Positions 8,212 to 61,441 of a DNA stretch of 64,000 nt are shown in pieces. The stretch covers positions 102,538 to 166,537 of the forward strand of contig RECE01000212.1 in NCBI GenBank assembly GCA_007694165.1, read 5' to 3'. The notes under the pieces were generated by a model. The model did not search any database. It saw nothing but the letters and a program-made list of their open reading frames with translations, and had not been told where the DNA came from. Position numbers and translations under genes: made by a program. This stretch comes from Bacteroidota bacterium (lineage in GTDB: Bacteria > Bacteroidota > Bacteroidia > Bacteroidales > UBA7960). Position 1 is the stretch's first letter; each line of letters opens with the position of its first letter.

Positions 8212-9315
8212 TTATACACCGGCAAGCAGGAGAGGGAGTTTCTCCTCCAGATCATAATAATCCAGGTTTCTGCCGATTATGATGCCATTCTGGTCAACCA
8301 AAACATTTTGGGGGATGCTTCTGACAGCATATTCAGCTGCAGGTCCACTCTGCCATCCCTGCAGGTCGCTTACCTGGGGCCATTTAAGCCCATCCTCCTC
8401 AATTCCGCGCACCCAGGCTTCATGGGTTCTGTCGAGCGATACGCCCAATACTTCAAATCCCTCACCCCCAAACTTCTCATAAATCCTTACCAGTTCGGGA
8501 TTGGAATCTCTGCAATAGGGACACCATGACGCCCAGAAACTGATTAGCACCACCTGCCCCTGAAAATTGGACAGTGATATGGATTCTCCCTCCGTATTGT
8601 TTAGTGTAAAATCAATGGCCGGATTACCTGTGGCAACCCGTCTGAGGGTATTGAGGTTTTTTTCCATTTCATCGTAATACCTTGTGCCTTGCAATGATGT
8701 ATCAAATACTGCGAAAATCTTCTCCAGCTCTTCGGGGCTTGCCCCATGCGACAATTGCCTTTGTGCAATGAAAACCGATACAGCCATATCAGGATACTCC
8801 CTGATAAAAGAAAGAACTTCTTCTTTTTTTCGTTCACGAAGTTCGTCGCTCATTTTTCTGAACTCTGCTATGGCTTCCGCATTACCGGCTTTTTCTGCCT
8901 CACCCAATTCGCTTTGCACATATCGGGATCGTTCATCGTATGGGGCTACCAAATCGCCTAACTGTGTAAATATGTCATGCGACTTAGATCCTTCAACGGT
9001 ATACACCAGGGGCTCTCTTTGCGTGATGTTGAGCTGTATTTCGGAATTTTCCATGAATACTGCAATCCTTCCGGGTACTCCATCGATTCTGACATAGTAC
9101 ATCTGGGGAGAATCCATGGTACCCTCAAAAGTAAATACGCCGTTGTAAATGCGGGCGGAGTCCAAATCCACCATCTGTCCGGAAACCCGATCCTGAAGGT
9201 AAGCCAATCCGGCGATCTGCCCCTCAACTTCACCGCGCAAGGTATACTTTTCTTTTAGCGGAGACTGGCATGCAAAAAGTGCTGTAGCCAGCAACAAAAC
9301 AATAGTTTTTCTCAT
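8212..9315 (-). CDS. TlpA-family thiol:disulfide oxidoreductase lipoprotein (thioredoxin fold)
   Basis: 367 aa. Lipobox LLATALFAC and redox motif FWASWCPYC in the C-terminal thioredoxin-like domain. Confidence 0.8.
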   Translation of the reverse strand: MRKTIVLLLATALFACQSPLKEKYTLRGEVEGQIAGLAYLQDRVSGQMVDLDSARIYNGVFTFEGTMDSPQMYYVRIDGVPGRIAVFMENSEIQLNITQREPLVYTVEGSKSHDIFTQLGDLVAPYDERSRYVQSELGEAEKAGNAEAIAEFRKMSDELRERKKEEVLSFIREYPDMAVSVFIAQRQLSHGASPEELEKIFAVFDTSLQGTRYYDEMEKNLNTLRRVATGNPAIDFTLNNTEGESISLSNFQGQVVLISFWASWCPYCRDSNPELVRIYEKFGGEGFEVLGVSLDRTHEAWVRGIEEDGLKWPQVSDLQGWQSGPAAEYAVRSIPQNVLVDQNGIIIGRNLDYYDLEEKLPLLLAGV

Positions 9316-27725: not shown

Positions 27726-30497
27726 ATGAATAAAAAGCTTTACATGAATTTTCTGATTCTTCTTGCGTGTCTTTTTATTGTAGATGTTCAGGCGCAGGAA
27801 TTGCAGTTAAGAGGTACTGTTCGCGACATGTCGGATCAGCAAACCCTGCCAGGTGTAAACGTAACCGTTAAGGGAACTACCACGGGCACTGTAACGGATA
27901 TCAATGGTCAGTATACCATTACGGCAGATACAGGCTCTGTGCTGGTATTTACCTTCGTGGGTATGCAGCGCAAAGAAGTTGAGGTAGATGGCAGTACGAG
28001 GGTTCTCAACGTGGACCTGCTACCTGAAGTTGCTCTTCTGCAGGAGTTTGTGGTGGCTATTTCGGCCATTGCCCGCGACAGGGAAACCCCGGTAGCCATT
28101 TCTACCATCAGCGCTGAAGTAATCAGCGAACGGTTGGGTTCGCAGGAGTTTCCGGAAATTCTCAAATCAACGCCCAGTGTTTATGCAACCAAAGATGGCG
28201 GAGGGTTTGGTGACGGACGCATCAACATGCGGGGGTTCGACTCCAACAACATTGGCGTTTTGATCAATGGAGTTCCCGTAAACGATATGGAAAACGGAAG
28301 GGTTTACTGGTCAAACTGGGCCGGTTTATCTGATGTAACACAGACCATGCAGGTGCAGCGTGGATTGGGAGCCTCAAGGCTTGCCATAAGCTCCGTAGGA
28401 GGAACTATCAATATTGTAACCCAAACCACAGATGCGAGAAAAGGGGGTACTGTTTTTTATGGCTTTGGACACGATGGCTATGAAAGAAGGTCGGTATCAC
28501 TGTCGACCGGTTTAATGGACAACGGCTGGACCGTTACAGCATTGGGCGGAAGAACAACAGGACAGGGTTTTGTAGATGGAACTGAGTTTGACGGGTGGTC
28601 GTATTTTTTCAATGCTTCAAAACAGCTAAGCGATCGGCACATTGTTAGTTTTACTGCATTTGGTGCCCCACAGTGGCACAATCAACGCTGGCCCCGTCAA
28701 CTTATTCAAACTTTCAGAGAACACGAAAGAGGCATTCGTTATAACCCTTCACAGGGTTTGCTCAATGGGCAGTCCTTTAACTCGGCGCACAATGAGTACC
28801 ATAAACCTCAAATCTCTATGAATCATTTCTGGTCTGTAAGCCCCAATACAACCCTGTCAACAGCAGCCTATGCATCCATCTCTTCAGGTGGAGGACGCAG
28901 GATGGTTGGACCTAACAACAACTGGTACCAGTTTGACCGAAATACCGGTTTACCTACAGGAGATACCAAGCTTACCCCCTATGGTTTACTGGACTTTGAT
29001 TATGCTGTGGAACAAAACAGCTTGTCGCCTAATGGTTCACGTGTAATTGTAGCCAACGCCACCAATGAGCATGACTGGTACGGCATTTTGTCTTCATTGC
29101 AAACAGAGCAAGGGAACTTCAGATATACCGGTGGTTTGGACCTTCGTTATTACAGAGGATACCATTACCAGGAGATAACAGATTTGCTGGGAGGTACCCA
29201 CTACCAGGATGTCATGACCAGGGAAAATCAGATTCATAACATTGACCGCTCAGTAGTAAGTCGCAATGTTAACCGGGAAACCTCGGCAAGGCTAACCATA
29301 GGCGATAAAATTGCTTATCATGACCTGGGAGAAGTAGCCTGGGGTGGTTTATTTGCTCAGGCAGAATATGTAAGTGACCAGTACTCGGCTTTTATTTCCG
29401 GTACCTTATCCAACACCAGCTACCGTCGTACCGATTATTTTCTTTATTACGATGAGGATTCGCCGGAAAGACCAAAACTTTTAGCAGAAGCTGATGAATT
29501 CTTCAACCAGGCTGCTGCAGCAGAGCAACAAGGCGATTCTGTAGCTTATGTCTCCTACATGAATAATTACAACAGCATTATGAATATGCAGGCCCTTCAG
29601 CCCCAGCAGTCAGACTGGATCGACTTTCTGGCATGGAGTATTAAAGGGGGTGCCAACTATAATATCAGTGCCCGACACAATGTTTTTGCCAATGCAGGAT
29701 ATTTTACCCGTGCACCGTTTTTCAGGTTTGCTTTTGTTGGATTTACCAATGTAACCAACCCCGGGGTTAACCATGAAAGGGTTATTTCTTCTGAAATAGG
29801 ATACGGATACCGCTCCCCCCTTCTGGCTGCCAATGTAATCCTTTACCGCACTGAATGGCTCGACAAGGCACTGGTTAGAAACCTCGGACAGGGTGTTATC
29901 GCCAACATTACGGGTCTGGATGCCCTTCACCAGGGTTTGGAAATCGATTTTACCATCAGACCTGAACGCAGACTTGAAATCAGGGGTATGTTCTCCTATG
30001 GTGACTGGAAATGGCAGGATGACCTGATTGCCGAAGTATTTGATGAAGACCAGGTTTTTCTTGATAGTATCCAGGTATATGCAAAGGGATTAATGGTGGG
30101 AAATTCTGCACAAATCACAGCAGCATTAGGGCTTTCCTATGAATTATTACCCAATGTAAGGTTAGGAGTGGATGCAAACCATTATGACAGGCTCTTTGCT
30201 GACTTCAACGTAGAAGACCGGGGTGATATTAATCTTAGAGGCCAGGATTCATGGCAAATGCCCGCCTATCAAATGGTAGACCTCAGCCTGCGATACAGGT
30301 TCAAAATCGCCGGGTTGGATGCTACTTTGCAGGCCAATATCAACAACCTCTTTAATACTGAGGCCATCAGAGATGCTACTGATGGGGTATACATTGACCC
30401 CAAAACAAATGAACGCATCCTGGGACGTCCTGATGTTGCTACTGTTTACTACGGCTGGGGACGCACATGGACCACCTCTTTTCGTGTAAGATTTTAA
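27726..30497 (+). CDS. TonB-dependent outer-membrane receptor (CarboxypepD_reg + plug + barrel)
   Basis: 923 aa. Signal peptide, N-terminal domain LRGTVRDMSDQQTLPGVNVTVKGTTTGTVTDINGQYTI, a plug region and a terminal aromatic residue (FRVRF). Confidence 0.88.
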   Translation: MNKKLYMNFLILLACLFIVDVQAQELQLRGTVRDMSDQQTLPGVNVTVKGTTTGTVTDINGQYTITADTGSVLVFTFVGMQRKEVEVDGSTRVLNVDLLPEVALLQEFVVAISAIARDRETPVAISTISAEVISERLGSQEFPEILKSTPSVYATKDGGGFGDGRINMRGFDSNNIGVLINGVPVNDMENGRVYWSNWAGLSDVTQTMQVQRGLGASRLAISSVGGTINIVTQTTDARKGGTVFYGFGHDGYERRSVSLSTGLMDNGWTVTALGGRTTGQGFVDGTEFDGWSYFFNASKQLSDRHIVSFTAFGAPQWHNQRWPRQLIQTFREHERGIRYNPSQGLLNGQSFNSAHNEYHKPQISMNHFWSVSPNTTLSTAAYASISSGGGRRMVGPNNNWYQFDRNTGLPTGDTKLTPYGLLDFDYAVEQNSLSPNGSRVIVANATNEHDWYGILSSLQTEQGNFRYTGGLDLRYYRGYHYQEITDLLGGTHYQDVMTRENQIHNIDRSVVSRNVNRETSARLTIGDKIAYHDLGEVAWGGLFAQAEYVSDQYSAFISGTLSNTSYRRTDYFLYYDEDSPERPKLLAEADEFFNQAAAAEQQGDSVAYVSYMNNYNSIMNMQALQPQQSDWIDFLAWSIKGGANYNISARHNVFANAGYFTRAPFFRFAFVGFTNVTNPGVNHERVISSEIGYGYRSPLLAANVILYRTEWLDKALVRNLGQGVIANITGLDALHQGLEIDFTIRPERRLEIRGMFSYGDWKWQDDLIAEVFDEDQVFLDSIQVYAKGLMVGNSAQITAALGLSYELLPNVRLGVDANHYDRLFADFNVEDRGDINLRGQDSWQMPAYQMVDLSLRYRFKIAGLDATLQANINNLFNTEAIRDATDGVYIDPKTNERILGRPDVATVYYGWGRTWTTSFRVRF

Positions 30498-32325: not shown

Positions 32326-34596
32326 TTACTTCTGAATCTGCAATTTGTAGTTGAGTACCTGCACACCAGAAACAATCTGCACAATGTAAATGCCTGTTTT
32401 GAGGCTTTCGGTTTCAATGGACACATGCTGACCATTTACCTGCTTGCTTTGGATCAACTGGCCATTGAGGTTGTAAATTCTGATTTGATCCATCGTATTC
32501 TCACCAGTTATGGTAACATGATTGCGTGCAGGGTTGGGATATACACTAAATCCTGCTGCTTCGAATTCCTGAACAGAAGTAGGTTCAAGGAAATCAGCCA
32601 GTGATCTGGGCTGCAATCTGGTTACTTCCCAACGCTGATGCAAAACACCTACAATATCTTTGGGAGTCGTAGGAATATCGGTTTCGAAATAATCCAACAG
32701 ACCAGGTGAATTGGGTGTTCTGATTACACCCTCGCCGGTAGCATCTACAATATAATAAGATTGATTGTGGGTAAAGATTTCTGAATCGGGAAATTCCTCA
32801 TGATCAAAATCGAAGGATACCATTCTTACCACTACCAACCTTCCGGCAATATCCTCAGAAAGTTGATCGAGTGTAACTTCCATGGGTTCAATTACATTGC
32901 CAGTGGTATTGGCCGGACCGGGGTCTTCTGTCAGAATCAATTGAAGCATATTCTGGAAAGTACTCAGGGTTCCGGTCAGATTAACGATACCATCATAATT
33001 GTTATATTCAGTGGTAATCACCGTGGGATTATTACCTTGATCTATAAGGATAGCAGCAGTATTGTCCTGGATATAGATTTGGCCTCTGTAACCCATTTGC
33101 ATATGGGTAATATAAACTTCTCCGGTAATTCTGTAAACGAGATCGCCATCCTCAGGATCCATATCATAGAGTTCAGCAATATTGGCTACTTCGATTGCTT
33201 CAGGAGCTTCTTCAATTTCAATATTGTCGATGTACCAGTTGTGAGAACCTGCGCCTTTGTATGCAAAAGCAATATACACTACTTTTCCTGCATAATCACT
33301 CAGACCCACAATTCGTTCTGTATAATTTTCGATGGGCGAAGCTGCCTCATACACCAGTTGGAAATCTCCATGTTCCGGATTACCACTGCCGGTAGAAATC
33401 ATAACACCACTGAGGCTTTCTCCCGGAGTGTAATTAGGCATAAAGCTGTTTTTCTGGAAAAATGTCAACAGCATTGCCTGATCTTCAGGAAGCTGAATCT
33501 GAGGGCTTACCAGCCATGATTCAGAATGGGCTGCTCCTCTGGCATGCAAAGCTGCATGATTACCATAGGGAGTATCACCTGTTACATTCCAGCTACCTGC
33601 TCCGTAAGCGAAATGTGCCCAGGTTGCAGGAGGTATGGTACCTGCTTCGAAACCTTCATCCCAGGGGAATCCTTCAACCAGGTCGGAAGATATTTCTACA
33701 ATTACAATGGTAACATTTAAATCTTCTTCTGAAACGGTAATGGTTCCCTGACGGGTGTAAAATCCTGCCTTTACAATGGTGTAAGCATGTGTACCTCCGG
33801 GTACATCAGCAAAGAAATAATCTCCTGCTGCATTGGTTTGACCCATAAGGGTAATAACGGCATCGTTAATTATATTGTCTTGCTCATCTGTCACAGTAAA
33901 AGTAACATCATAGGCTGCAAGCGCTTCAAAGTCGGCAGCAAACCTTGCGGAAAAGTAATCGCCGTCATTTCTGGAATTGGGTAGCCCTGTAATATTAAAA
34001 GGACCGGCAGGAATAGGAGTTCCAATATAGTCTACTCCAAAAAAAGTAGTTCTGAAGCTGGCCACATTATCGCCATCAGTAAACTCATAAACCTGGCCAT
34101 TGGCAAAGTTTACGCCCGGATTGGTAAAACTCACTTCGTTAATGGTTATCAGTCGCGACTGGTAATCCATAAAATTGGCAAGATACTCCGCCATGTCAAT
34201 CTCAATAGGTACCACCACATTATTATCTGAAGTTGCAGCTCCCGGATCTTGAGAAGGAACAAACTGCCTCATATTACCAAAAATGCTGATTGTACCGGTG
34301 AGTCCGGTAATACCATCATAAAGGCTATAGGAGGAGGTAATAACTCCAGGGTTGTCATCGATAAGAATACCTCCGGTTTCGTCCTGGATGTATTTCTGAT
34401 TTCGGAAAGTCTGCTGGAATGTCAATACAACTTCACCTGTTAATTCAAAAACAGTTTCGGTACCGAATTCCTGTTCAAGCAACTCCCCCATGGTCGCGAT
34501 GGGGACAATATCTTTCCCTCCTTCTGATGCATAGCTCTGGTAAGAAAACAGGCCGGCAAACATCAATAATAAACTAAAAATTGTAACTTTTTTCAT
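32326..34596 (-). CDS. T9SS-secreted surface protein with two OB-like domains, a CarboxypepD-like domain and a MAM/choice-of-anchor-J-like domain
   Basis: The start was moved to ATG 34596 (MKKVTIFSLLLMFAGLFSYQSYA). There is an internal duplication (ELTGEVVLTFQQTFRNQKYIQDETGGILIDD vs RITGEVYITHMQMGYRGQIYIQDNTAAILIDQ). The C-terminal sorting domain reads VYPNPARNHVTI...GIYIVQIVSG. Confidence 0.75.
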   Translation of the reverse strand: MKKVTIFSLLLMFAGLFSYQSYASEGGKDIVPIATMGELLEQEFGTETVFELTGEVVLTFQQTFRNQKYIQDETGGILIDDNPGVITSSYSLYDGITGLTGTISIFGNMRQFVPSQDPGAATSDNNVVVPIEIDMAEYLANFMDYQSRLITINEVSFTNPGVNFANGQVYEFTDGDNVASFRTTFFGVDYIGTPIPAGPFNITGLPNSRNDGDYFSARFAADFEALAAYDVTFTVTDEQDNIINDAVITLMGQTNAAGDYFFADVPGGTHAYTIVKAGFYTRQGTITVSEEDLNVTIVIVEISSDLVEGFPWDEGFEAGTIPPATWAHFAYGAGSWNVTGDTPYGNHAALHARGAAHSESWLVSPQIQLPEDQAMLLTFFQKNSFMPNYTPGESLSGVMISTGSGNPEHGDFQLVYEAASPIENYTERIVGLSDYAGKVVYIAFAYKGAGSHNWYIDNIEIEEAPEAIEVANIAELYDMDPEDGDLVYRITGEVYITHMQMGYRGQIYIQDNTAAILIDQGNNPTVITTEYNNYDGIVNLTGTLSTFQNMLQLILTEDPGPANTTGNVIEPMEVTLDQLSEDIAGRLVVVRMVSFDFDHEEFPDSEIFTHNQSYYIVDATGEGVIRTPNSPGLLDYFETDIPTTPKDIVGVLHQRWEVTRLQPRSLADFLEPTSVQEFEAAGFSVYPNPARNHVTITGENTMDQIRIYNLNGQLIQSKQVNGQHVSIETESLKTGIYIVQIVSGVQVLNYKLQIQK

Positions 34597-34783
34597 GATT
34601 CTCTGTTTGGTTAGTAATTTTGATTGAATTTGAATTTGAAAGATTGTATCATAACTCTTATTAATGTTCTTCATGGCAAATTTATGAATTTCTTTCAGGT
34701 TGAATAAATATATTCGTTTAAACTTTCATTAATAAAAAATATTCCATCTAATTGCCGGGTTAACTCCTGGCAGAAAGCGGTTG

Positions 34784-41532: not shown

Positions 41533-42183
41533 TTATTGCTTGTTATGATCCGCAAGAAATTTTTCCAGACCTATATCGGTAAGGGGGTGTTTGAGCAGAC
41601 CAAGGATGGGTTCCAATGGACAGGTAACAACATCAGCGCCCGCTTCCGCGCACTTGATGATGTGCATGCTGTTGCGTATACTTGCAGCAAGAACCTCAGT
41701 TTCAAAACCATGAATGGTATAAATATTCACAATTTGTTGAATCAACTCCACTCCATCGTAGGAAACATCGTCAAGTCTTCCAATAAAGGGACTAACATAA
41801 GTTGCTCCTGCTTTGGCAGCCAGTAAGGCTTGTCCGGCTGAGAATACCAGGGTACAGTTGGTTTTTATTCCTTTGTCGGTAAAATACCGAATAGCTTTGA
41901 TTCCATCTTTGATCATCGGCACTTTTACCACAATCTGGGGATGAAGCTCAGCCAGTGCATGGCCTTCTTTGATTATACCCTCAAAATCTGTAGCAATAAC
42001 TTCAGCACTTACATCTCCATCTACGATATTACAGATATCCACATAGTGTTGCATTACTCTATCATGCCCTTTGATTCCTTCTTTGGCCATCAGGGATGGG
42101 TTGGTGGTAACTCCGTCAAGAATGCCAAAATCGTTTGCTTCCCTGATTTGATCCAGGTTGGCTGTATCAATAAAAAACTTCAT
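41533..42183 (-). CDS. Fructose-6-phosphate aldolase / transaldolase (Fsa/TalC family)
   Basis: The real start is ATG 42183 (MKFFIDTANLDQIREANDFGILDGVTTNPSL), with the Schiff-base Lys region IVVKVPM. The ORF-track extension to 42360 overlaps the SRP RNA. Confidence 0.92.
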   Translation of the reverse strand: MKFFIDTANLDQIREANDFGILDGVTTNPSLMAKEGIKGHDRVMQHYVDICNIVDGDVSAEVIATDFEGIIKEGHALAELHPQIVVKVPMIKDGIKAIRYFTDKGIKTNCTLVFSAGQALLAAKAGATYVSPFIGRLDDVSYDGVELIQQIVNIYTIHGFETEVLAASIRNSMHIIKCAEAGADVVTCPLEPILGLLKHPLTDIGLEKFLADHNKQ

Positions 42184-42230
42184 AGGATATGTTTTTAGGA
42201 ATGTATAAATGCAAAAAGGGTATAAAAAAA

Positions 42231-42321
42231 GCAAGCCCGGCATCGCACCGCTACGACCGCCTACCCTTGCTACCTTCCGGTCCTGGGGGAGTTCAGCAGG
42301 AGCTGGTCGTACCAGACTTGC
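42231..42321 (-). ncRNA. ffs: Signal recognition particle RNA (small/4.5S type)
   Basis: The minus strand reads GCAAGTCTGGTACGACCAGCTCCTGCTGAACTCCCCCAGGACCGGAAGGTAGCAAGGGTAGGCGGTCGTAGCGGTGCGATGCCGGGCTTGC. It contains the conserved CAGG-CCGGAAGG-AGCA helix-8 core with a GGAA tetraloop. The 5' and 3' ends pair (GCAAGTC/GGCTTGC, GGTACGACC/GGTCGTAGC). A T-run follows and a -7 box lies just upstream. Confidence 0.85.
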
Positions 42322-42326
42322 GAGTG

Positions 42327-42334
42327 CAAAAGTA
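42327..42334 (-). promoter_or_regulatory. -7 promoter box (TACTTTTG on the minus strand) for the SRP RNA
   Basis: Exact TAnnTTTG match ending 6 nt before the inferred 5' end of the SRP RNA. Confidence 0.55.
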
Positions 42335-42522
42335 TAAAAAATTGCCGACCTGACAAGCATCAGATGTTTTTTTTTGAAAAATTTATTGGGCCTGAATTAG
42401 ATGGTTGTGTTTTTTTCAAAAATATCGCGTGTTAACATGTCGTATGTATAAAAGCATTATTTTTGTCATGTAATTTCACTGATTATTTTACCTTAATTAA
42501 TTAATCATTAATGACCTAAACG

Positions 42523-53612: not shown

Positions 53613-54149
53613 ATGACTACAGATAACCCCATACTATCGCGACAGGTAATAGAAATGATTACCGTGGCCCACGAATATTGCCTCTTTTTTGAAGAAGCGG
53701 AAAAACATTCAAGGGAAGATATATTCTCTTATTTTCAGAAAATTGCCCCCCTGCTCTATCTCAAAGGGGCGGTATTGCCTGATGATGTGGAGGCAGATCC
53801 TGAATATGCCGAAAGATTTGTGAATGAAGAACAATGGGAAGCCATTTTTAAAGTGCTGCGTGAAAAATTTGGTGACCAGGATGTGTACTATGTGCACGAT
53901 CACAATTTTGACAGCCAGCCCACCAGCCTGTCTGAAAATATAACTGATGTATACCAGGACATGAAAGATTTCGTGATGTTATACCAGAAAGCCCCCATCC
54001 AGAGCAAGGCATGTGCTGTGGCAGAGTTGCAAAAGCTTTTCGAAAACCACTGGGGAAACCGGTTGCTCAGCGCCCTGAATGCAGTCCACAGCTTGCTGTA
54101 CAGAGATTCTATTGACCCTGAATTGCTGGGCGATTGGGAACTGGAATAG
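53613..54149 (+). CDS. Hypothetical cytoplasmic protein (possibly DUF5063)
   Basis: The start was moved from TTG 53598 to ATG 53613 (MTTDNPILSRQ). Acidic and helical, with no signal peptide. The family name is recalled only. Confidence 0.5.
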   Translation: MTTDNPILSRQVIEMITVAHEYCLFFEEAEKHSREDIFSYFQKIAPLLYLKGAVLPDDVEADPEYAERFVNEEQWEAIFKVLREKFGDQDVYYVHDHNFDSQPTSLSENITDVYQDMKDFVMLYQKAPIQSKACAVAELQKLFENHWGNRLLSALNAVHSLLYRDSIDPELLGDWELE

Positions 54150-54160
54150 GACATTGCAAA

Positions 54161-54199
54161 ATACAAAAACCCTGCAGATGCTTCGCAGCAGCTGCAGGG
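54161..54199 (-). terminator. Rho-independent terminator of GLUG paralog 1
   Basis: On the minus strand: CCCTGCAG-CTGCTGCGAAGCAT-CTGCAGGG followed by TTTTTGTATTTT. Confidence 0.8.
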
Positions 54200-54202
54200 C
54201 AA

Positions 54203-54224
54203 GGTTCACCAAAACCAAAATCAA
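54203..54224 (-). repeat. Conserved 22-nt 3'-flank motif, copy 1 (mRNA sense TTGATTTTGGTTTTGGTGAACC)
   Basis: 22/22 identical to 56975-56996. It lies between the stop codon and the terminator hairpin. Confidence 0.9.
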
Positions 54225-54227
54225 TCA

Positions 54228-56720
54228 TTAATATACCTGAATCTTTCGGGCGATGACTTCATCGCCGTAAAAGACCACGGTATAGATTCCCTTTTGCAGG
54301 CCGGAAAGGTCAACAAAGGTAACCTGTCCCGGCTCTGCACTCTTGCTGTATACCATTTTCCCCAGCATATCGTAAATTTGAAAATTTATGTTTTTATGGC
54401 CACCTGTAAGTATGCGGAAATGCCCATTGTTTGGGTTGGGAAACAACCTTATGTCTTCTGTTATATCGGTTCGGGTATAAACGCTGATGGTTTTTGAATA
54501 TTCGAAATCACCATTGAAATCGGTTTGTTTAAGCCGATAGTAAGCTAGCCCGTCAAGAGGCTCATGGTCCATGTACTTGTAATGATTAATCTGGCTGGTA
54601 GTCCCCGCCCCGGTTTTTGTGCCAATGGAGTTAAATTGAACCCCATCGCGGCTTCTTTCAATGGTGAAGAAATCGTTGTTGAGCTCGGCAGCTGTGACCC
54701 AACTTAGAGCTACTGCATCTTCCACGGCTTTGCCATCAAAGGAAAGCAGGACTATGGGCATGGGTGTGGAAGCATCGGAAGCTGTCCACTGGCTGAAGGA
54801 TGTGACATTCTTTGCTACCAGTTTTTTTTCACCAATATTCTCGGAATATACAATTTCCCAGGGCAGCCAACCATCTCCATCTTTTACCCTTTTGAAGAGC
54901 GACAAGGCTGGGTTGACATCGGCTTCCTGCAATTCTCCCAGAAAATAATGGAAGGTAACGGTCGCATTCAGTTCTGAAGGGAGTTCTGTAGGCGTAATCG
55001 TAAACCATCGCATGATGCTTTTTGCCTCATCGCTTCCGGCAAGCTCGCTGTGGCCGCGTTCGATGGTAACTTCCATATCCTTGTTGGTATTGATTCCGAG
55101 CCCAATACCTGCGATATTGAGATGCTCCCCGCTGATGTTTTGCACCCTGATAATTTTTCCACTGGCGCCAAACACCCGTGAAGACGAATTATATTCTTCC
55201 TTTTCAATCAGCATAGCATCTGCTCCCAACAGGGTGATAGTAAATCCATTCAAATCAAGAAAGCCCAATTCCAATGTCAGATTTCCCTTTACAGTAATAT
55301 CGCCTGCCAGGTTTACATTATTGGGATTTTCAATGGTGAGATTTTCGAAAATCAGCGAGGGGATTTGTTGTGTCTTTTGGCCTGCAAGGATCAGCCGGCC
55401 ATTATCTGGTGTCAGTATTTCAGATGGTTGCTGAGTGTCACCATCAAACTCCAACTTACCGGAAATAGATAATGAACCGACAAGAGTAATTTTTGCACCA
55501 GAACCCAGAGTTAAATCCTGAATAGAAAAATCAGCACCTAACGTTGGCCAGGCATTGGCTCCGATCAAGTTCTCTGGTTTTATAACAATAACTGCATTGC
55601 CATCAGTTGAAGGAATAGTACTTTCATGCCAGTTAGCAGCTTCATTCCAATCATTATCGGTGTGCCCGGTCCATGTCCAGATATTGGTTGAAACGGGTGG
55701 ATTTTCCCGTAAGGTGGGGTTGTCGGTCCCCATAATCCAGATATTTGCAAAATCCCAATCTTCAAAACTGCTTTGTATTTTCATGTGAACTTCAGAAAGA
55801 GCAACTCCTTCGCCATTGTTGGGCTGGACTGACAAAAAGTAGCTGGAAATAACTGTTCCACTGTGTTGATTCTGTCCTCCAAAGCCCAGTAATCCCCCTA
55901 TTCTTGTGTCAGTGCCACTAACCGTTCCCATAGCGAAACTATTGATAATAATCCCCCGGAATTCTACACAACCTGCAAGACCTCCTATGCGTTCTGCACC
56001 TTCACCAGCGGTTACACTGCCCAGGGCATAAGAGTTGCTGATGAGTCCTTTCTGATTGCATCCCGTCAAACCTCCATATTTAATTTTATTGGGGTCAGAA
56101 TTTGGTGCCATAGAAACATCCACATTCGTCCAGCAAGCGAATATAACCGGGCGAAAACTCTCTGCATTGGCATTGTTGAGTCGATAACTGTTGTTGGAAC
56201 CTACCAGGCCTCCTACGGCAGCATTGCCCTTCACAAAGCCTTCTGCTCCTCCATCTACCGAGCAATACTCTATGCGTGTATTCTGGTTGCCTGTTACACG
56301 TCCTGCGAGCGCACCCGTTCCCCTGCCTCCGGTCACTTTTACATTTACAAGTTTGATGTTTCGGAGCGTAGTATGCCCGTTATCATCCATCCCTACATGA
56401 CCAAATAAGCCAACATTGGCTACATCAGGCCTATAGATGGTCAGATTGCTGATGGTAAAACCTTGACCGTCATAATGGCCGGTAAAACGTTTATCGGTTC
56501 CATTTGCGGCAATAGGCACCCAATTTCCGTAGCCTGACAGATCAATATTTTGAGTTTGGAGAAACCATGCATCAGTGTAGTTTCTTACGTTATTGAGATG
56601 CGCTGGTAATGCCACCTGAAAAGGATTTAATTTAGTTCCAGTGCCTCCTGCAAATTCTGTTGCCATAAGTGAAATTGTGCAACTAAGCAGAATCAACAGT
56701 GTAAAGTATATTTTTTTCAT
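54228..56720 (-). CDS. GLUG-motif, T9SS-secreted surface protein, paralog 1
   Basis: The start was moved to ATG 56720 (MKKIYFTLLILLSCTISLMA). GLUG-type repeats VGGLVGSNNS, YGGLTGCNQKG, IGGLAGCVEF and IGGLLGFGG. C-terminal sorting domain LFPNPNNGHFRI...GIYTVVFYG. Confidence 0.8.
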   Translation of the reverse strand: MKKIYFTLLILLSCTISLMATEFAGGTGTKLNPFQVALPAHLNNVRNYTDAWFLQTQNIDLSGYGNWVPIAANGTDKRFTGHYDGQGFTISNLTIYRPDVANVGLFGHVGMDDNGHTTLRNIKLVNVKVTGGRGTGALAGRVTGNQNTRIEYCSVDGGAEGFVKGNAAVGGLVGSNNSYRLNNANAESFRPVIFACWTNVDVSMAPNSDPNKIKYGGLTGCNQKGLISNSYALGSVTAGEGAERIGGLAGCVEFRGIIINSFAMGTVSGTDTRIGGLLGFGGQNQHSGTVISSYFLSVQPNNGEGVALSEVHMKIQSSFEDWDFANIWIMGTDNPTLRENPPVSTNIWTWTGHTDNDWNEAANWHESTIPSTDGNAVIVIKPENLIGANAWPTLGADFSIQDLTLGSGAKITLVGSLSISGKLEFDGDTQQPSEILTPDNGRLILAGQKTQQIPSLIFENLTIENPNNVNLAGDITVKGNLTLELGFLDLNGFTITLLGADAMLIEKEEYNSSSRVFGASGKIIRVQNISGEHLNIAGIGLGINTNKDMEVTIERGHSELAGSDEAKSIMRWFTITPTELPSELNATVTFHYFLGELQEADVNPALSLFKRVKDGDGWLPWEIVYSENIGEKKLVAKNVTSFSQWTASDASTPMPIVLLSFDGKAVEDAVALSWVTAAELNNDFFTIERSRDGVQFNSIGTKTGAGTTSQINHYKYMDHEPLDGLAYYRLKQTDFNGDFEYSKTISVYTRTDITEDIRLFPNPNNGHFRILTGGHKNINFQIYDMLGKMVYSKSAEPGQVTFVDLSGLQKGIYTVVFYGDEVIARKIQVY

Positions 56721-56722
56721 AT

Positions 56723-56742
56723 CCTTTGGATTTTGGTGAAAC
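56723..56742 (-). repeat. 5'-leader motif of paralog 1 (mRNA sense GTTTCACCAAAATCCAAAGG), complementary to the 3'-flank motif
   Basis: It ends 3 nt before the ATG. It forms 12 contiguous pairs (one G-U) plus 3 more with TTGATTTTGGTTTTGGTGAACC. Confidence 0.7.
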
Positions 56743-56926
56743 ATGATGATAAATCATCGTTGAGTTATACAAAAATGGCCATATAACTTATTGTAAACAA
56801 CAGTGGTACCCCTTGAATTTATGATATTTTTGCGGGTACTAATACCTGTTTAATTAGTGTAGGAAAGGCGTGCTGGAAATCAGGGGCCGTAACAGGTTGG
56901 GAGCTCAATGAAAGCTTATGGGGATA

Positions 56927-56969
56927 AGAAAATTAAGAAAACGCGCAGGTGCTTCTCAGCAGCTGCGCG
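56927..56969 (-). terminator. Rho-independent terminator of GLUG paralog 2
   Basis: On the minus strand: CGCGCAG-CTGCTGAGAAGCAC-CTGCGCG followed by TTTTCTTAATTTT. The stem covaries relative to copy 1. Confidence 0.8.
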
Positions 56970-56974
56970 CAAAT

Positions 56975-56996
56975 GGTTCACCAAAACCAAAATCAA
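56975..56996 (-). repeat. Conserved 22-nt 3'-flank motif, copy 2
   Basis: Identical to 54203-54224. Confidence 0.9.
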
Positions 56997-56999
56997 AAT

Positions 57000-59516
57000 T
57001 TAATAAACCTGTATCTTATGGGTAATTAACTCTGTATCAAAAAACACCAGGGTATAAATTCCCTGCTTGAGCTGGGGCAAAGAAACATGGTTAACCATGC
57101 CTGCCCGGGCTACCGAAGTGTAAACTGTTCGGCCCTGCATATCAAATATTTTATAATCTATCGCTTTCTCTCCTGCTGCAACAATGTTGAAATTGCCATT
57201 GCTGGGATTCGGGTATACCTTCATATCAGCAAGTGCTGCCTTTTGGGTATAGACAGATACAATATTGGAATATTCAAAATCACCGTTATAATCCGTTTGT
57301 TTCAGGCGGTAATAAGACAACCCGGTTAGCGGTTCATGGTCTATCACTGCATAATGGTTTGCATGGCTTGTGGTGCCTGCCCCCTGCACGAAATGAATGG
57401 CTTCAAAATCCACTCCGTTAACACTTCTCTCAACCGTAAAAAAATCATTGTTGATTTCTGCGGCAGTAACCCAGCTCACTTCAACCTCGTGGTTAAGGGG
57501 GGTAGCCTCAAAAGAGAGCAATACAATGGGCAGCGGAGAGTCGGAGCTTCCTGCGGTCCAGGTGCTGAATTCATTGACATTTTCCGCTGTGAGTTTCTGG
57601 TTGAGGGCGTCTAACTCAGAAGGTACCCAAACCCACTCTGTTTCATTGCTTTTTCTTTTAAAAAGAGAGAAGTTGTCATTCTCCCCATAGATATTCAGTT
57701 CGCTGGTAAAGTAATGGAATACCAGTGTAGCATTCAAATCTTCATTGGTGGCAGGTTCAATATTGAACCACCTTAATATACTTTTCGACTCGTCGGTGCC
57801 GTTGAGTTCACCATGGCCTCTTTCTATAAGGGTCAGCCCCATATCTTTGCTGCTGGTAATTTCCAGTCCTATTCCGGCTATTTGGCCTGAGGGATTGTTG
57901 AGGATACGCAGAGTGCGGATTACTCCACTGCTTCCGTATACCCTTGAAGAAATATTTTCACCTTCTTTTTCCTGCAATTCGGCATCTTCTCCCAGGGTAA
58001 TTTCATATCCGCTCAAATCCAGCTGGCCGCTGGTCATTTTAAGCAAGCCATTGACATAAATACTGCCTGAAAGCTGTACATTGCTGATATTGTTTATTAC
58101 CAGGTTTTCAAATGTCATGGCCGGAAGATATTGACGATCGCTTCCGGAGAGTTCTATGTATCCTTTGCCGGTGATACTGCCTGTTCCGGTCGATTCATTG
58201 CCACCAAGCAGTTTCCCTGTAATGACAATCGCTGCATCTTCATGCTCAAGGTTCAGACTGGCATTGTCTTCTATTGAAAGTTCATTGATGATAATTAGTT
58301 GAGAAATCACAGGCTGATTAGGTGTCCCTCCTGGTATTACTACCATATCCAGATTTGCAGGAACCCCTTCCGGTGTCCAGTTTTCAGGATTTGTCCATGC
58401 ATTATCTTTGCTGCCGTTCCAGGATTTTTCCGTTTTGGCAGAATTGGTTTCGTCTCTGAAGGCCGGAAATCCGTAATTTACGTTGGTCTCTGTTTTCCAG
58501 ATGGTGTAAAAGTCCCAGTTCTGATAACTTTGGGCATTCTGCATTTGTGCCGTAGTGAGGCCGATAGCACCCAGAGAGTTTAAGTCAGAAGGATTGTTAT
58601 CTGTATTCCAGTAAGAGTTGACAATAACTCCCATGTTTCTGCCCAACCCCAGACTGCCAATAAACCCGCCTGTATTCGATGAATTGTCGGCATAAACCCC
58701 GGAAGTGGAGTAAGAGTTGATAACAATACCACGCAAATCAACACAACCGACCAAACCGCCCACATATGAAACCTCTGCGTCATTGATGGTAACGTCGCCC
58801 ATGGCGTAGCTGTGCGAAATCATTCCTTTCTGGTTGCATCCTACCAGTCCGCCAAACTTAATTTTCCCGGCTGAGTATTCTGAACGGAGCAAAACACTTA
58901 CATCAGCACTGCATTGAAAAATCACTGGCCTGAAACCTTCTGCAGCAAGAGATGTTTCCATAAAACTGTTGTTGGAGCCTACAAGACCTCCGGTGGCAGC
59001 ATCACCCCTTACATACCCCATCGCCACAGAGCAGTTTTCAATGCGGGTATTCTGATTTCCTGTTACTCTTCCCACCAATGCACCTGTTCCACGTCCTCCT
59101 ATTACAATTACATTTTGCAGTACAATATTTTTCAAAGTTGTGGAACCATTCCCTTTTTCTCCAATATGACCAAAAAGACCAACATTATGATTACCCGGTT
59201 GTACAATGGTCAGGTTGCTAATGTTAAAACCATTGCCATCGTAATGCCCGGTAAAATTGTTTCCCATCTCATTGTTTTGTCGGTTTCCCCCAATGGGAAT
59301 CCAATAGTTTCCCATGTTGAAAGGCACCACATTGAGGTTGATATCTGCAATCTGAAGAAAATGTTTGTCAAGATGGTTTCTTGCTTCATTCAAATGTTGA
59401 GCAGTGGCTACCAGAAAGGGGTCTTCTGAAGTACCATTTCCTCCGGCAAAATCAACTGCCTGTAAACTAAAGATGCTTATCAGCATCAGGGCGAGAGTTA
59501 TGTATATCTTTTTCAT
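57000..59516 (-). CDS. GLUG-motif, T9SS-secreted surface protein, paralog 2
   Basis: 838 aa. Signal peptide MKKIYITLALMLISIFSLQA. GLUG-type repeats TGGLVGSNNS, FGGLVGCNQKG and VGGLVGCVDL. C-terminal sorting domain VYPNPSNGNFNI...GIYTLVFFD. Confidence 0.85.
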   Translation of the reverse strand: MKKIYITLALMLISIFSLQAVDFAGGNGTSEDPFLVATAQHLNEARNHLDKHFLQIADINLNVVPFNMGNYWIPIGGNRQNNEMGNNFTGHYDGNGFNISNLTIVQPGNHNVGLFGHIGEKGNGSTTLKNIVLQNVIVIGGRGTGALVGRVTGNQNTRIENCSVAMGYVRGDAATGGLVGSNNSFMETSLAAEGFRPVIFQCSADVSVLLRSEYSAGKIKFGGLVGCNQKGMISHSYAMGDVTINDAEVSYVGGLVGCVDLRGIVINSYSTSGVYADNSSNTGGFIGSLGLGRNMGVIVNSYWNTDNNPSDLNSLGAIGLTTAQMQNAQSYQNWDFYTIWKTETNVNYGFPAFRDETNSAKTEKSWNGSKDNAWTNPENWTPEGVPANLDMVVIPGGTPNQPVISQLIIINELSIEDNASLNLEHEDAAIVITGKLLGGNESTGTGSITGKGYIELSGSDRQYLPAMTFENLVINNISNVQLSGSIYVNGLLKMTSGQLDLSGYEITLGEDAELQEKEGENISSRVYGSSGVIRTLRILNNPSGQIAGIGLEITSSKDMGLTLIERGHGELNGTDESKSILRWFNIEPATNEDLNATLVFHYFTSELNIYGENDNFSLFKRKSNETEWVWVPSELDALNQKLTAENVNEFSTWTAGSSDSPLPIVLLSFEATPLNHEVEVSWVTAAEINNDFFTVERSVNGVDFEAIHFVQGAGTTSHANHYAVIDHEPLTGLSYYRLKQTDYNGDFEYSNIVSVYTQKAALADMKVYPNPSNGNFNIVAAGEKAIDYKIFDMQGRTVYTSVARAGMVNHVSLPQLKQGIYTLVFFDTELITHKIQVY

Positions 59517-59518
59517 GA

Positions 59519-59542
59519 CTTTGGCTTTTATCTGGTGAACGG
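59519..59542 (-). repeat. 5'-leader motif of paralog 2 (mRNA sense CCGTTCACCAGATAAAAGCCAAAG)
   Basis: It ends 2 nt before the ATG. GTTCACCAGA gives 10 contiguous pairs (one G-U) with the 3'-flank motif, and CCAAA can pair with a second UUUGG. Confidence 0.6.
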
Positions 59543-60022
59543 TGGGTGCCGTGTTGGAACCCTTTTTGATATTACAAATTTGACAATCTAAAACACTGTA
59601 AACAACCGTGTTAACCCCCTAAATAAAAGTCAAAAAGCAAGTAAAATTACGCATCCCAAAACAGTTGTTTTGCATTACGGGTCTACAGGTAGCCTTTGTA
59701 AAAATATTTTCTATTTAATGCAAAAACAGACAGTTACCAAGGGTCTGATAAAAAAGTTTTTGATGCATTAGATGCAGGACGATAAGACGAAACTGTATAT
59801 GAATACTTCGATATGAAGGCAACGAAGCACGGGATTAACCCCTGCTCATAGCTTAAATTTTGGGTAATTCCTCTGTGAGGAAGCAACCGATATTTATATA
59901 TCTTTGCCTGAATGAATGGCTTTGTGAAGGAAAAATGCAATAATTTGATTTGATTTTAAACACTATGCAATAATCAAGTGTTAACATAGTTTGTTAATGA
60001 AAACCCTGCAAAATTGAATATT

Positions 60023-61441
60023 ATGACATTGAAAAAACTATTTTTCAGCGCTTTTATCAGTTTGATAATTTTCAGCTGCGCCCTTGCCGACAAAGGGGTG
60101 AATGGTTACAGAATAGATGTAAAAGTACAAGGCATACAGGACACTGTGGCTTTTATGGCCTATCATTTTGGCAACCGGCAATACGTGCTCGATACGGTAA
60201 GGGTTGACCATCAGGGCAGGTTTACTTTCGAAGGAGAACAATCCCTGGATAAAGGAATGTATATGGTGGTTTTGCCGGGTCAGGTATATTTTGAGATCCT
60301 GGTAGATCATAATCAGCACTTTGGCGTGGAGACGGTAATGAATGAATTCATTAGCACCATGCAATTTGTGGGTTCACCACAGAATGAAGCCTTCTACGGG
60401 TATATGCAATTTATCAGGCAGCAGGGAGAGCAAAGCGGCCCCTTGCGCGCCGAATTGCAGGAAGCCGGCCTCACTGGCGAAAGAAGAGAACAAATACGCA
60501 CTGAACTGGCTGTGCTTGATGAAAGGGTAAAAAATGAGCAAAACAGAATCATAGAAATGTTTCCCGATGGCCTTTTCAGCAAAATTCTGCTGGCCCAGCA
60601 AGAGCCTCCCATGCCCGAAGCACCATCCAGGGAAGACGGAACACCGAACCATGAACTTATGTATCACTTGTATAAAAAAGCTTTCTGGGAAAACATAGAT
60701 TTTGCGGATGACCGATTGTTGAGAACTCCCATTTTTCATGCAAAGCTCAACCAATACTTTACCCGTGTGGTGATGCAAATGCCCGATAGTATAATCGCAG
60801 AGGCCGATCGCATTGTGGAAAAATCACGTGCCCATGACGAAGTATTCAAATACACTGTTTTCTACCTTACCAATACCTTTGAACGGTCTCAAATCATGGG
60901 AATGGATGCGGTGTTTGTGCACATGGTGGAGAATTATTACATGACCGGGCAGGCTCACTGGGTAAATGAAGAACAATTGCAGAAGATTTCTGAACGTGCC
61001 ATGGCTCTCAAGCCGCTACTTATCGGTAAAGTTGCCCCCGATATTAACATGTTTAAGCCCGACAACTCAAGACTTAGCTTGCACAATGTGGATACGAAAT
61101 TTACAGTGGTCTATTTCTGGGACTCTGAATGCGGACACTGCAAGCGACAAACACCCGTGCTGAAGGATTTCTATAAGCGCATGAATCCAAGAGGTGTGGA
61201 AATTTTTGCTGTCAACACCGAAGCTGACAGAAACAAATGGCTTTCGTATGTGGAGAAAAACAACCTGGAGTGGATCAATGTGAATGACCCAGCCAATCGC
61301 TCAGGTTTTCGTGATAAGTATGATATATGGGCCACACCGTTGATTTTTTTGCTGGATGAAGACAAGCGGATTATCGCCAAGCGAATCACCATAGAACAAA
61401 TGGAAGAGATTATCAACATGGAATTGCAGCGCATGAATTGA
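60023..61441 (+). CDS. TlpA/thioredoxin-like lipoprotein with a large N-terminal domain
   Basis: The start was moved from TTG 60014 to ATG 60023 (MTLKKLFFSAFISLIIFSC lipobox). Redox motif in VVYFWDSECGHCKRQTP. Confidence 0.75.
   Translation: MTLKKLFFSAFISLIIFSCALADKGVNGYRIDVKVQGIQDTVAFMAYHFGNRQYVLDTVRVDHQGRFTFEGEQSLDKGMYMVVLPGQVYFEILVDHNQHFGVETVMNEFISTMQFVGSPQNEAFYGYMQFIRQQGEQSGPLRAELQEAGLTGERREQIRTELAVLDERVKNEQNRIIEMFPDGLFSKILLAQQEPPMPEAPSREDGTPNHELMYHLYKKAFWENIDFADDRLLRTPIFHAKLNQYFTRVVMQMPDSIIAEADRIVEKSRAHDEVFKYTVFYLTNTFERSQIMGMDAVFVHMVENYYMTGQAHWVNEEQLQKISERAMALKPLLIGKVAPDINMFKPDNSRLSLHNVDTKFTVVYFWDSECGHCKRQTPVLKDFYKRMNPRGVEIFAVNTEADRNKWLSYVEKNNLEWINVNDPANRSGFRDKYDIWATPLIFLLDEDKRIIAKRITIEQMEEIINMELQRMN

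Follow-up and report, generated by a model that had tools for sequence, protein, structure and literature searches.

A conserved 3' untranslated RNA element of GLUG genes in Bacteroidota, complementary to the start region of its own gene

Two tandem GLUG genes with matching 3' ends

We analysed a stretch of DNA of 64,000 nucleotides (nt) from a Bacteroidota bacterium (assembly GCA_007694165.1, contig RECE01000212.1), hereafter called the window, in which two neighbouring genes for GLUG-motif proteins, A and B, are each followed by a copy of the same 3' element. This is a real, conserved and previously uncatalogued RNA element in the untranslated stretch at the 3' end (3'UTR), with complementarity to the start region of its own gene. 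An earlier note on this DNA had described the two genes as co-directional, 838 and 830 amino acids (aa) long, with stop codons 2772 nt apart, and our analysis bore this out. Their protein identity, put by eye at half to two thirds, was slightly lower when measured, at 47%, with 54% nt identity over the aligned coding sequence (CDS). Both proteins have the features of cargo of the type IX secretion system (T9SS), type A (PF18962, E 1e-10 to 1e-11; TIGR04183), and hydrophobic N-termini beginning MKKIY. The genes and their 3' ends are laid out as follows:

57000..59516, minus strand: gene A, an 838-aa GLUG-motif protein with a signal peptide and a T9SS type A C-terminal sorting domain (open reading frame, ORF; Pfam Glug and Por_Secre_tail; TIGR04183)
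54228..56720, minus strand: gene B, the 830-aa paralogue of A (ORF; Pfam Glug and Por_Secre_tail; TIGR04183)
56933..56996, minus strand: 3' element of gene A, about 64 nt, from 3 nt past the stop codon (covariance model R1, 89.2 bits, E 1.4e-17)
54162..54224, minus strand: 3' element of gene B, from 3 nt past the stop codon (covariance model R1, 81.9 bits, E 6.5e-16)
56975..56996, minus strand: U/G-rich tract of element A, RNA UUGAUUUUGGUUUUGGUGAACC (exact 22-mer match, alignment)
54203..54224, minus strand: U/G-rich tract of element B, the same 22-mer as in A (exact match)
56941..56970, minus strand: terminator hairpin A, with an 8-bp lower stem, a 2x2 internal loop, a GCU/AGC apical stem and a GAGA tetraloop (covariation, minimum free energy)
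56933-56940, minus strand: U-run of element A, directly 3' of the hairpin
54170..54199, minus strand: terminator hairpin B, with stem CCCUGCAG/CUGCAGGG and a GCGA tetraloop (covariation, folding)
54161-54169, minus strand: U-run of element B, directly 3' of the hairpin

The 22-mer TTGATTTTGGTTTTGGTGAACC stands on the mRNA strand right after both stop codons and, as had been claimed, is identical at 22/22 positions between 54203-54224 and 56975-56996. It is the longest identical run in the aligned 2.8-kb duplicated units, and no further match with three or fewer mismatches was found elsewhere in the window or in 100 shuffles. The two 3' elements as a whole share 76% nt identity, compared with 54% for the CDS. 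The broader claim that the flanks are better conserved than the genes held for the 3' element, the promoter block and the leader motif (both described below) but failed for the upstream region as a whole (45%, against 54% for the CDS).

Each 22-mer is followed by a hairpin with a conserved apex and a T-run, as the earlier note had it. What was taken for a conserved loop is indeed conserved, but is actually an apical stem of 3 bp (GCU/AGC) capped by a tetraloop, GNGA, of the GNRA type. Hairpin A has a minimum free energy of -26 kcal/mol (z -3.9); z was -3.7 to -4.4 in three of the four copies folded and -1.5 in L002b (L numbers denote loci). With its stem-loop, its sense-strand U-run and no T-run on the opposite strand, the structure has the form of an intrinsic (Rho-independent) terminator, and the 3' element is thus predicted to terminate the transcript. 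A palindrome in the signal-peptide codons of A, GATGCTGATAAGCATC at 59472-59487 (minus strand), resembles the terminator apex GCTGAGAAGC; it occurs in no orthologue and is unique to the window genome, so that it is probably a coincidence.

The tract itself may fold as a weak 5-bp hairpin, GGUUU/GAACC. The description of the tract as a single-stranded seed needs the qualification that this small hairpin can also form. The tract also holds a UUUUGG direct repeat, and the possible small hairpin would present UGGU. GA|UUU within the tract resembles an RNase E-type site (consensus RN|WUU). By eye, there was no convincing TAnnTTTG promoter upstream of the tract.

Conservation and distribution of the element

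We scanned 185,579 species genomes for GGTTTTGGTGAACC-N8-20-GCTGNGAAG and obtained 11 matching stretches. Nine are in Bacteroidota metagenome-assembled genomes (MAGs), every one of them after a GLUG gene, and in 9/9 the motif lies 5-21 nt past the stop of an ORF of about 840 aa for a GLUG/T9SS protein. We rejected L005:194-233 and L010:4271-4310 as true elements: they have no terminator hairpin and no GLUG gene, and match at chance level. The two contigs, one binned as Hyphomonas and one as Pirellulaceae, are homologues of one another and share TTGGTTTTGGTGAACC followed by GGCTGGGAAGGC.

We aligned 17 distinct copies over 66 columns, from about ten Bacteroidota MAGs and metagenome contigs; the MAGs carrying the element include GCA_007131895.1 and GCA_011390785.1. 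A 16-nt core, UUGGUUUUGGUGAACC (also written TTGGTTTTGGTGAACC), was invariant in all 17 copies. The tract begins 5-21 nt past the stop codon, and 3-5 nt separate its end from the terminator stem. In the test that the earlier note had suggested for orthologous loci, the hairpin covaries: compensatory changes were found at 5/8 lower-stem pairs, 98.4% of cells were paired, and the covariation score was 0.364, compared with 0.138 in shuffles (0/500 as high) and at most 0.104 in slid controls. The apex is fixed as GCU-GNGA-AGC, with the N of GNGA as the sole variable loop base. Since G-U pairs occur only on the sense strand, and the U-run lies there too, the constraint acts on the sense-strand RNA.

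The carrier genomes are well diverged, so the invariance of the core reflects selection rather than recency. GLUG proteins at the other loci share 44-78% identity with those of the window, orthologues of the A type share 59-71% with A, and the neighbouring AhpC-like proteins share 66-71%. Purifying selection on the 3' element is strong and acts at the RNA level. It is extremely improbable that the element has no function and that the identity of the 22-mers merely stems from recent tandem duplication or local gene conversion. Short tracts can be exchanged between tandem paralogues, but the core is invariant in about ten genomes despite diverged non-coding flanks and terminator stems, which contradicts conversion within a genome as the explanation. 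A coding role or a read-through peptide was also rejected, because the distance from the stop (5-21 nt) spans all three frames and keeps no constant one, and because indels separate the tract from the hairpin; the element is therefore non-coding.

The earlier note had asked whether its motifs recur at orthologous loci or form a generic repeat. The 3' motif is present in other genomes, and the leader motif accompanies it in most cases, the exception being L014b, which has no leader box. The full element is not generic, with one to three copies per locus, each after a gene of the GLUG family. A dispersed repeat of the REP or MITE type was rejected on the same grounds, with two copies in 64 kb and nine true stretches in 185,579 genomes, all after GLUG genes. 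By inspection against the consensus, the core motifs do not fit an integron attC or a dif-like site either.

The GLUG locus is syntenic across relatives: an AhpC-TSA/DUF4369 gene lies divergently upstream of one to three GLUG genes, often with a convergent DUF5063 gene downstream. The window holds two paralogues of this DUF4369/AhpC-TSA thioredoxin-like type, at 8212-9315 (minus strand) and 60014-61441 (plus strand), the latter being the conserved divergent neighbour. At L003:8999-11442, a third tandem GLUG paralogue, probably a pseudogene, is broken up among three called genes of 338, 88 and 247 aa. It still has a leader box, GGTCACCAAAAACC, and a 3' element with a full score (85 bits).

To delimit the element, we used R1, the covariance model built from it, for which true copies score 78-89 bits. 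R1 found no match at 80 loci of more distant GLUG/T9SS relatives, at the dispersed full-length paralogues L096, L097, L099 and L100, at the syntenic single-copy orthologues L101/L102 and L104, or in the rest of the 64-kb window, including a second T9SS cargo gene. That gene, at 32326-34674 (minus strand; DUF5689 and Por_Secre_tail, 782 aa), has no 3' element. The syntenic single-copy locus L103 has a degenerate version, keeping UUUUUGGUUUUGGU without GAACC and the apex. T9SS cargo genes and GLUG genes thus do not carry the element as a general rule, given that the 80 distant loci, the four dispersed paralogues and the second cargo gene lack it. Rfam 15 gave nothing at the element, either at the gathering threshold over the whole window or at E<=10 over 54100-57100.

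The bare 16-mer also occurs in 91 viral contigs (L105-L195, IMG/VR). These matches are unrelated coding sequence scoring at most 35 bits, none with the full element, and we rejected a phage or mobile origin on that basis. The viral 16-mer sits in several recurrent gene families, and GGTTTTGGTGAACC reads GFGEP in one frame.

The range of the element is narrow, covering about ten uncultured MAGs, several from sediment samples. On a rough neighbour-joining tree the genes without the motif do not form one outgroup, and L099 and L100 nest within the B-type clade. On this topology, the tandem element would predate the split of A and B and would have been lost two or three times.

Leaders, promoters and complementarity to the 3' tract

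The 5' regions of the two genes carry the following features:

59519..59540, minus strand: leader motif A, GUUCACCAGAUAAAAGCCAAAG, ending 2 nt before the AUG and complementary to the 3' tract (duplex over -24..0, -25.6 kcal/mol, z -6.1)
56724..56742, minus strand: leader motif B, GUUUCACCAAAAUCCAAAG, ending 3 nt before the AUG (duplex over -20..-4, -18.1 kcal/mol, z -3.3)
59573..59617, minus strand: promoter block A, GGGTTAACACGGTTGTTTACAG ... CAAATTTGTA (repeat search D9; kept in orthologues)
56768..56812, minus strand: promoter block B (repeat search D9)

Leader motifs of the form GTT(T)CACCA...CCAAAG are present just 5' of both ATGs as the earlier note had reported, with its ends off by 1-2 nt. 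Its further claim that they are the reverse complement of the 3' motif was supported by RNAduplex, which gave 20 pairs for A (17 Watson-Crick and three G-U, one 5-nt bulge, -25.6 kcal/mol) and 16 pairs for B (15 Watson-Crick and one G-U, one bulge, -18.1 kcal/mol). Between the leader box GUUCACCA and UGGUGAAC in the tract, reverse complementarity is exact; an A-rich stretch and CCAAAG 3' of the box extend the match, with bulges. The chance that an 8-mer matches one of the 15 8-mers of a 22-mer is about 2e-4. When we scanned the window for duplexes with the tract (about 25,600 overlapping 40-nt windows, merged to non-overlapping sites), the leaders of A and B ranked 2nd and 19th, two perfect antisense self-matches being excluded. 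An independent repeat search recovered the same arms as inverted repeats I3 (21 nt, 81%) and I6 (20 nt, 85%, 228 nt apart). We also observed that GGUGAACC resembles the complement of an extended 16S rRNA 3' tail, GGUGAUCC, and that the leader sequence GUUCACCA resembles the tail; the window has no 16S gene.

We then compared loci, using the 13 motif-bearing genes with a readable leader and expressing each z against the background of its own locus. All 13 have a predicted duplex between seed and leader, at about -26..+1 relative to the AUG (-34..-14 in L015), with energies of -13.9 to -25.6 kcal/mol. In 12 of the 13, the energies were -14.8 to -25.6 kcal/mol and z was -2.0 to -6.1. Seven homologues without the element gave z of -1.5 to +2.3, which shows that A-richness alone does not explain the complementarity. 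Complementarity to the initiation region is thus, as predicted by duplex energy, specific to the genes that carry the element. At L103, which keeps the promoter block, the GAACC end of the tract and the leader box GUUCACCA are both missing, and at L009 a leader change from CC to UU still permits pairing through G-U.

Gene B has a second in-frame ATG upstream, at 56744, which is the start in the NCBI annotation (838 aa). Translation from there would read through the leader motif of B (MFHQNPKD-MKK...). The corresponding ATG of the close relative L001b lies out of frame, opening an 8-codon upstream ORF that ends in ATGA. The true start of gene B is probably 56720, the annotated one being too far upstream.

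The shared upstream block with a CAnnTTTG -7-like box was likewise found as described, extending over 45 nt with 73% identity between A and B. It can be read as two boxes, GTTG (-33-like) and CAnnTTTG (-7-like), with a spacing of about 20 nt, and from the known TTTG / TAnnTTTG consensus we infer promoters of the Bacteroidota sigma-A type. Among the window, L001-L004, L014 and L103, (G)GGGTTAACACnGTTGTTTACAG followed about 17 nt later by CAnnTTTGTA stands upstream of every motif-bearing GLUG gene and in L103; the block has diverged in L101, L104 and L016. A regulator could bind at GGGGTTAAC, the part of the block upstream of the -33-like GTTG.

The inverted arrangement of tract and leader admits a reading at the DNA level, which the earlier note had offered as cassette inversion: the repeats would serve a site-specific recombinase that flips each CDS relative to its promoter, or else the 228-bp segment with the promoter that runs from the 3' motif of A to the leader of B, for phase variation of a surface protein. 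Bacteroidota surface proteins are often phase-variable, and as in the invertons of this phylum, short inverted repeats (20-21 nt, 81-85%; I3 and I6) bracket gene B and the B promoter segment; a 228-bp promoter segment and each surface-protein CDS lie between arms. The arms are, however, unequally conserved. The 3' arm is invariant over 16-22 nt and the leader arm shares about 8 nt with indels, which disfavours inversion because recombining arms should homogenise. The single-copy loci L004, L009 and L015 lack a partner arm on the upstream side of the promoter, which means that promoter inversion cannot be the conserved role. All genes with a readable leader (13/13) are in one (ON) orientation, although consensus assemblies hide minority orientations, and the G-U pairs and U-run are constraints of a sense-strand RNA. 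The statement that the window has no recombinase held for the principal ORFs of at least 150-170 aa, in which Pfam found no recombinase domain, with nested ORFs and the 27726-30497 ORF outside the scan; none was found either in called genes within about 5 kb at seven orthologous loci (L002-L004, L101-L104), although a global invertase encoded at a distance is conceivable. We rate inversion as very unlikely.

A role as a DNA operator is no more credible to us. Here the GGTT-N6-AACC quasi-palindrome after the stop, together with an imperfect copy in the leader, would bind a dimeric factor that acts as a roadblock or forms a loop. The invariant core is indeed a GGTT...AACC inverted repeat, and copies like GTTCACCAAAAC lie in the leader. 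However, an operator would hardly be expected at a fixed site right after the stop and 3-5 nt ahead of the terminator, the placement is the same in terminal and single-copy genes with a convergent neighbour, a loop of 2.5 kb would be atypical, and no regulator gene is linked to the locus.

Proposed function and comparison with known systems

With moderate confidence, we propose that the element is an autoregulatory 3'UTR element, or a 3'UTR-derived small RNA (sRNA), that masks the initiation region of both paralogues. The tract would pair with the A/C-rich initiation region of the GLUG leaders, which has no Shine-Dalgarno (SD) sequence. Pairing could occur in cis, between the 5' and 3' UTRs of one mRNA, or in trans, if the 3' end accumulates as an sRNA of about 60 nt acting on both paralogues; the trans form would be a discrete 3' species of about 60 nt beginning near UUGAUUUUGG. 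In either form, pairing would block binding of the 30S subunit and so give negative feedback on, or cross-repression of, the dose of secreted protein. The pairing model implies that a change of UGGUGAAC to UGGACAAC would be compensated by a change of GUUCACCA to GUUGUCCA.

The sRNA reading of the earlier note fared well in its architecture, a tract followed by a terminator, and in the complementarity to the start region, and less well in that no compensatory change links tract and leader. All 17 copies have a conserved tract in the 3'UTR that shares the terminator of the mRNA, as 3'UTR-derived sRNAs do, and the predicted duplexes place a 3'UTR motif opposite the ribosome-binding region of its own mRNA. 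The components of the model have precedents. Bacteroidia initiate translation without an SD sequence, and mRNA structure near the start tunes initiation (PMC6847099). Bacteroides sRNAs that combine a terminator with a single-stranded, seed-bearing 5' stretch act as repressors by binding close to start codons (PMC11697453, PMC7366714). In other bacteria, autoregulation by 3'UTR sRNAs is an established mechanism (PMC7398697), and so is pairing between 5' and 3' UTRs (PMC3868564, PMC5737220).

Several observations weigh against this proposal. L014b keeps the 3' element without a leader box (z -1.6). The leader box drifts (GUUCACCA, GUUUCACCA, UAUUCACCA, GUUUCAUUA, GUUCACCU, AUCCACCA), with indels and bulges. 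No compensatory covariation between tract and leader was found in the alignment, in which the 3' core never varies, and variants at the 5' end of the tract (L002b, GAUAUUGG; L003b, GAAUUUGG) have no counterpart in the leaders. Because the leaders are homologous, the 12 cases in agreement do not count as independent, and on the rough tree the presence and absence of the element need only two or three events. The small hairpin may partly sequester the tract. The 3' fragment, the transcript ends and the pairing are all read from sequence. The tract is under far tighter constraint than its pairing with its own leader calls for, which points to another partner, either a protein or other targets.

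A protein partner would make the element a recognition site for an RNA-binding protein or ribonuclease, with a role in stability, 3' processing or localisation, and the likeness to the leader would be secondary; the leader might, for instance, hold a weaker site for a related factor. The 16 invariant nt and the invariant apical stem-loop, which exceed any constraint from a drifting leader box, argue for such a site, as do L014b with its element and no box, and the UUUUGG direct repeat with the possible UGGU-presenting hairpin. We nevertheless consider it rather unlikely, as it leaves unexplained both the exact reverse-complement leader box and the confinement of complementarity to motif-bearing genes, and no candidate protein is linked to the locus.

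Other targets would make the element a trans-acting 3'UTR-derived sRNA whose main targets lie elsewhere in the genome, its own leaders being minor or incidental. Invariant seeds are typical of sRNAs with several targets, and the dispersed paralogue L100 keeps a AUUCACCAAACC leader without a 3' element of its own. That paralogue (L100:4800-5000, P0032), which shares its source metagenome with L002 and L003, retains a related promoter; it could be a trans target if it is in the same genome as a carrier locus. Within the 64-kb window, however, no other start region pairs well with the tract, the translation-initiation regions of neighbouring genes are at background, and the best non-self sites are antisense to coding sequence. 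We judge a main role on such distant targets to be quite improbable. As candidate targets, the conserved neighbours (AhpC/DUF4369 and DUF5063) and the RNA of the signal recognition particle (SRP) were rejected, with duplex energies at background, and so was the best non-self duplex, at 3741-3780 (minus strand), which is antisense to radical-SAM coding sequence. The small SRP RNA, of the Bacteroidales type, lies at 42225-42330 (minus strand; 77.7 bits) and overlaps the 5' end of a transaldolase ORF (41533-42360, minus strand), the start of which is probably over-extended.

In a more ambitious form of the masking proposal, which we regard as speculative and unlikely, the element would be the hub of a new post-transcriptional circuit in Bacteroidota. 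Each GLUG/T9SS mRNA would set free an identical 3' seed, or offer it in cis, to mask its own SD-less start and those of its tandem paralogues. This would cap the total dose of a fast-evolving family of surface proteins or give a bistable or mutually exclusive switch, and the GNRA apex would recruit a dedicated protein. Since the stop codon is within about 5-21 nt of the tract, ribosomes terminating there would briefly expose it, which would couple repression to translation.

Post-transcriptional control in Bacteroidota is poorly mapped, and few sRNA families have been studied (GibS, FopS, MasB). If masking of the start by the 3' end is true, the element would be a clean case of 3'-to-5' mRNA feedback in this phylum and a new entry for RNA-family catalogues. 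Among known systems, it resembles OppZ and CarZ of Vibrio cholerae (Hoyos et al. 2020, PMC7398697) in having a conserved pairing tract directly upstream of the intrinsic terminator of its own mRNA and a target in the same transcript family, with negative feedback that is here predicted. OppZ and CarZ differ in being RNase E-processed and Hfq-dependent (PMC7398697). Unlike theirs, the predicted target of our element is the start region of a monocistronic gene itself, and there is no sequence similarity. OppZ and CarZ reportedly act on internal cistrons and trigger Rho termination, and Bacteroidota are not known to have Hfq or ProQ.

A second parallel is icaR of Staphylococcus aureus, whose mRNA has in its 3'UTR a motif complementary to its own ribosome-binding region, with pairing proposed to block initiation (PMC3868564); the interaction of 5' and 3' UTRs in hbs of B. 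subtilis is a further precedent (PMC5737220). Unlike icaR, the element has no SD target: a U/G-rich tract that abuts the stop codon faces an A/C-rich leader, and the same tract recurs in the tandem paralogue. The icaR motif is said to be an anti-SD UCCCC in a long 3'UTR, with RNase III involved.

A parallel within the same phylum is provided by FopS and GibS of Bacteroides thetaiotaomicron, multicopy sRNAs that bind near the start codons of mRNAs for outer-membrane or surface proteins and repress them, and of which one family member, FopS-14, is derived from a 3' end (PMC11697453, PMC7366714). The FopS structure has been deposited in Rfam, according to the FopS paper (PMC11697453); our element matches no Rfam 15 model, the presence of the FopS model in release 15 being unconfirmed. 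Whereas 9/14 FopS genes are free-standing, intergenic, equipped with promoters of their own and directed at SusC mRNAs, the element described here is always fused to one gene family.

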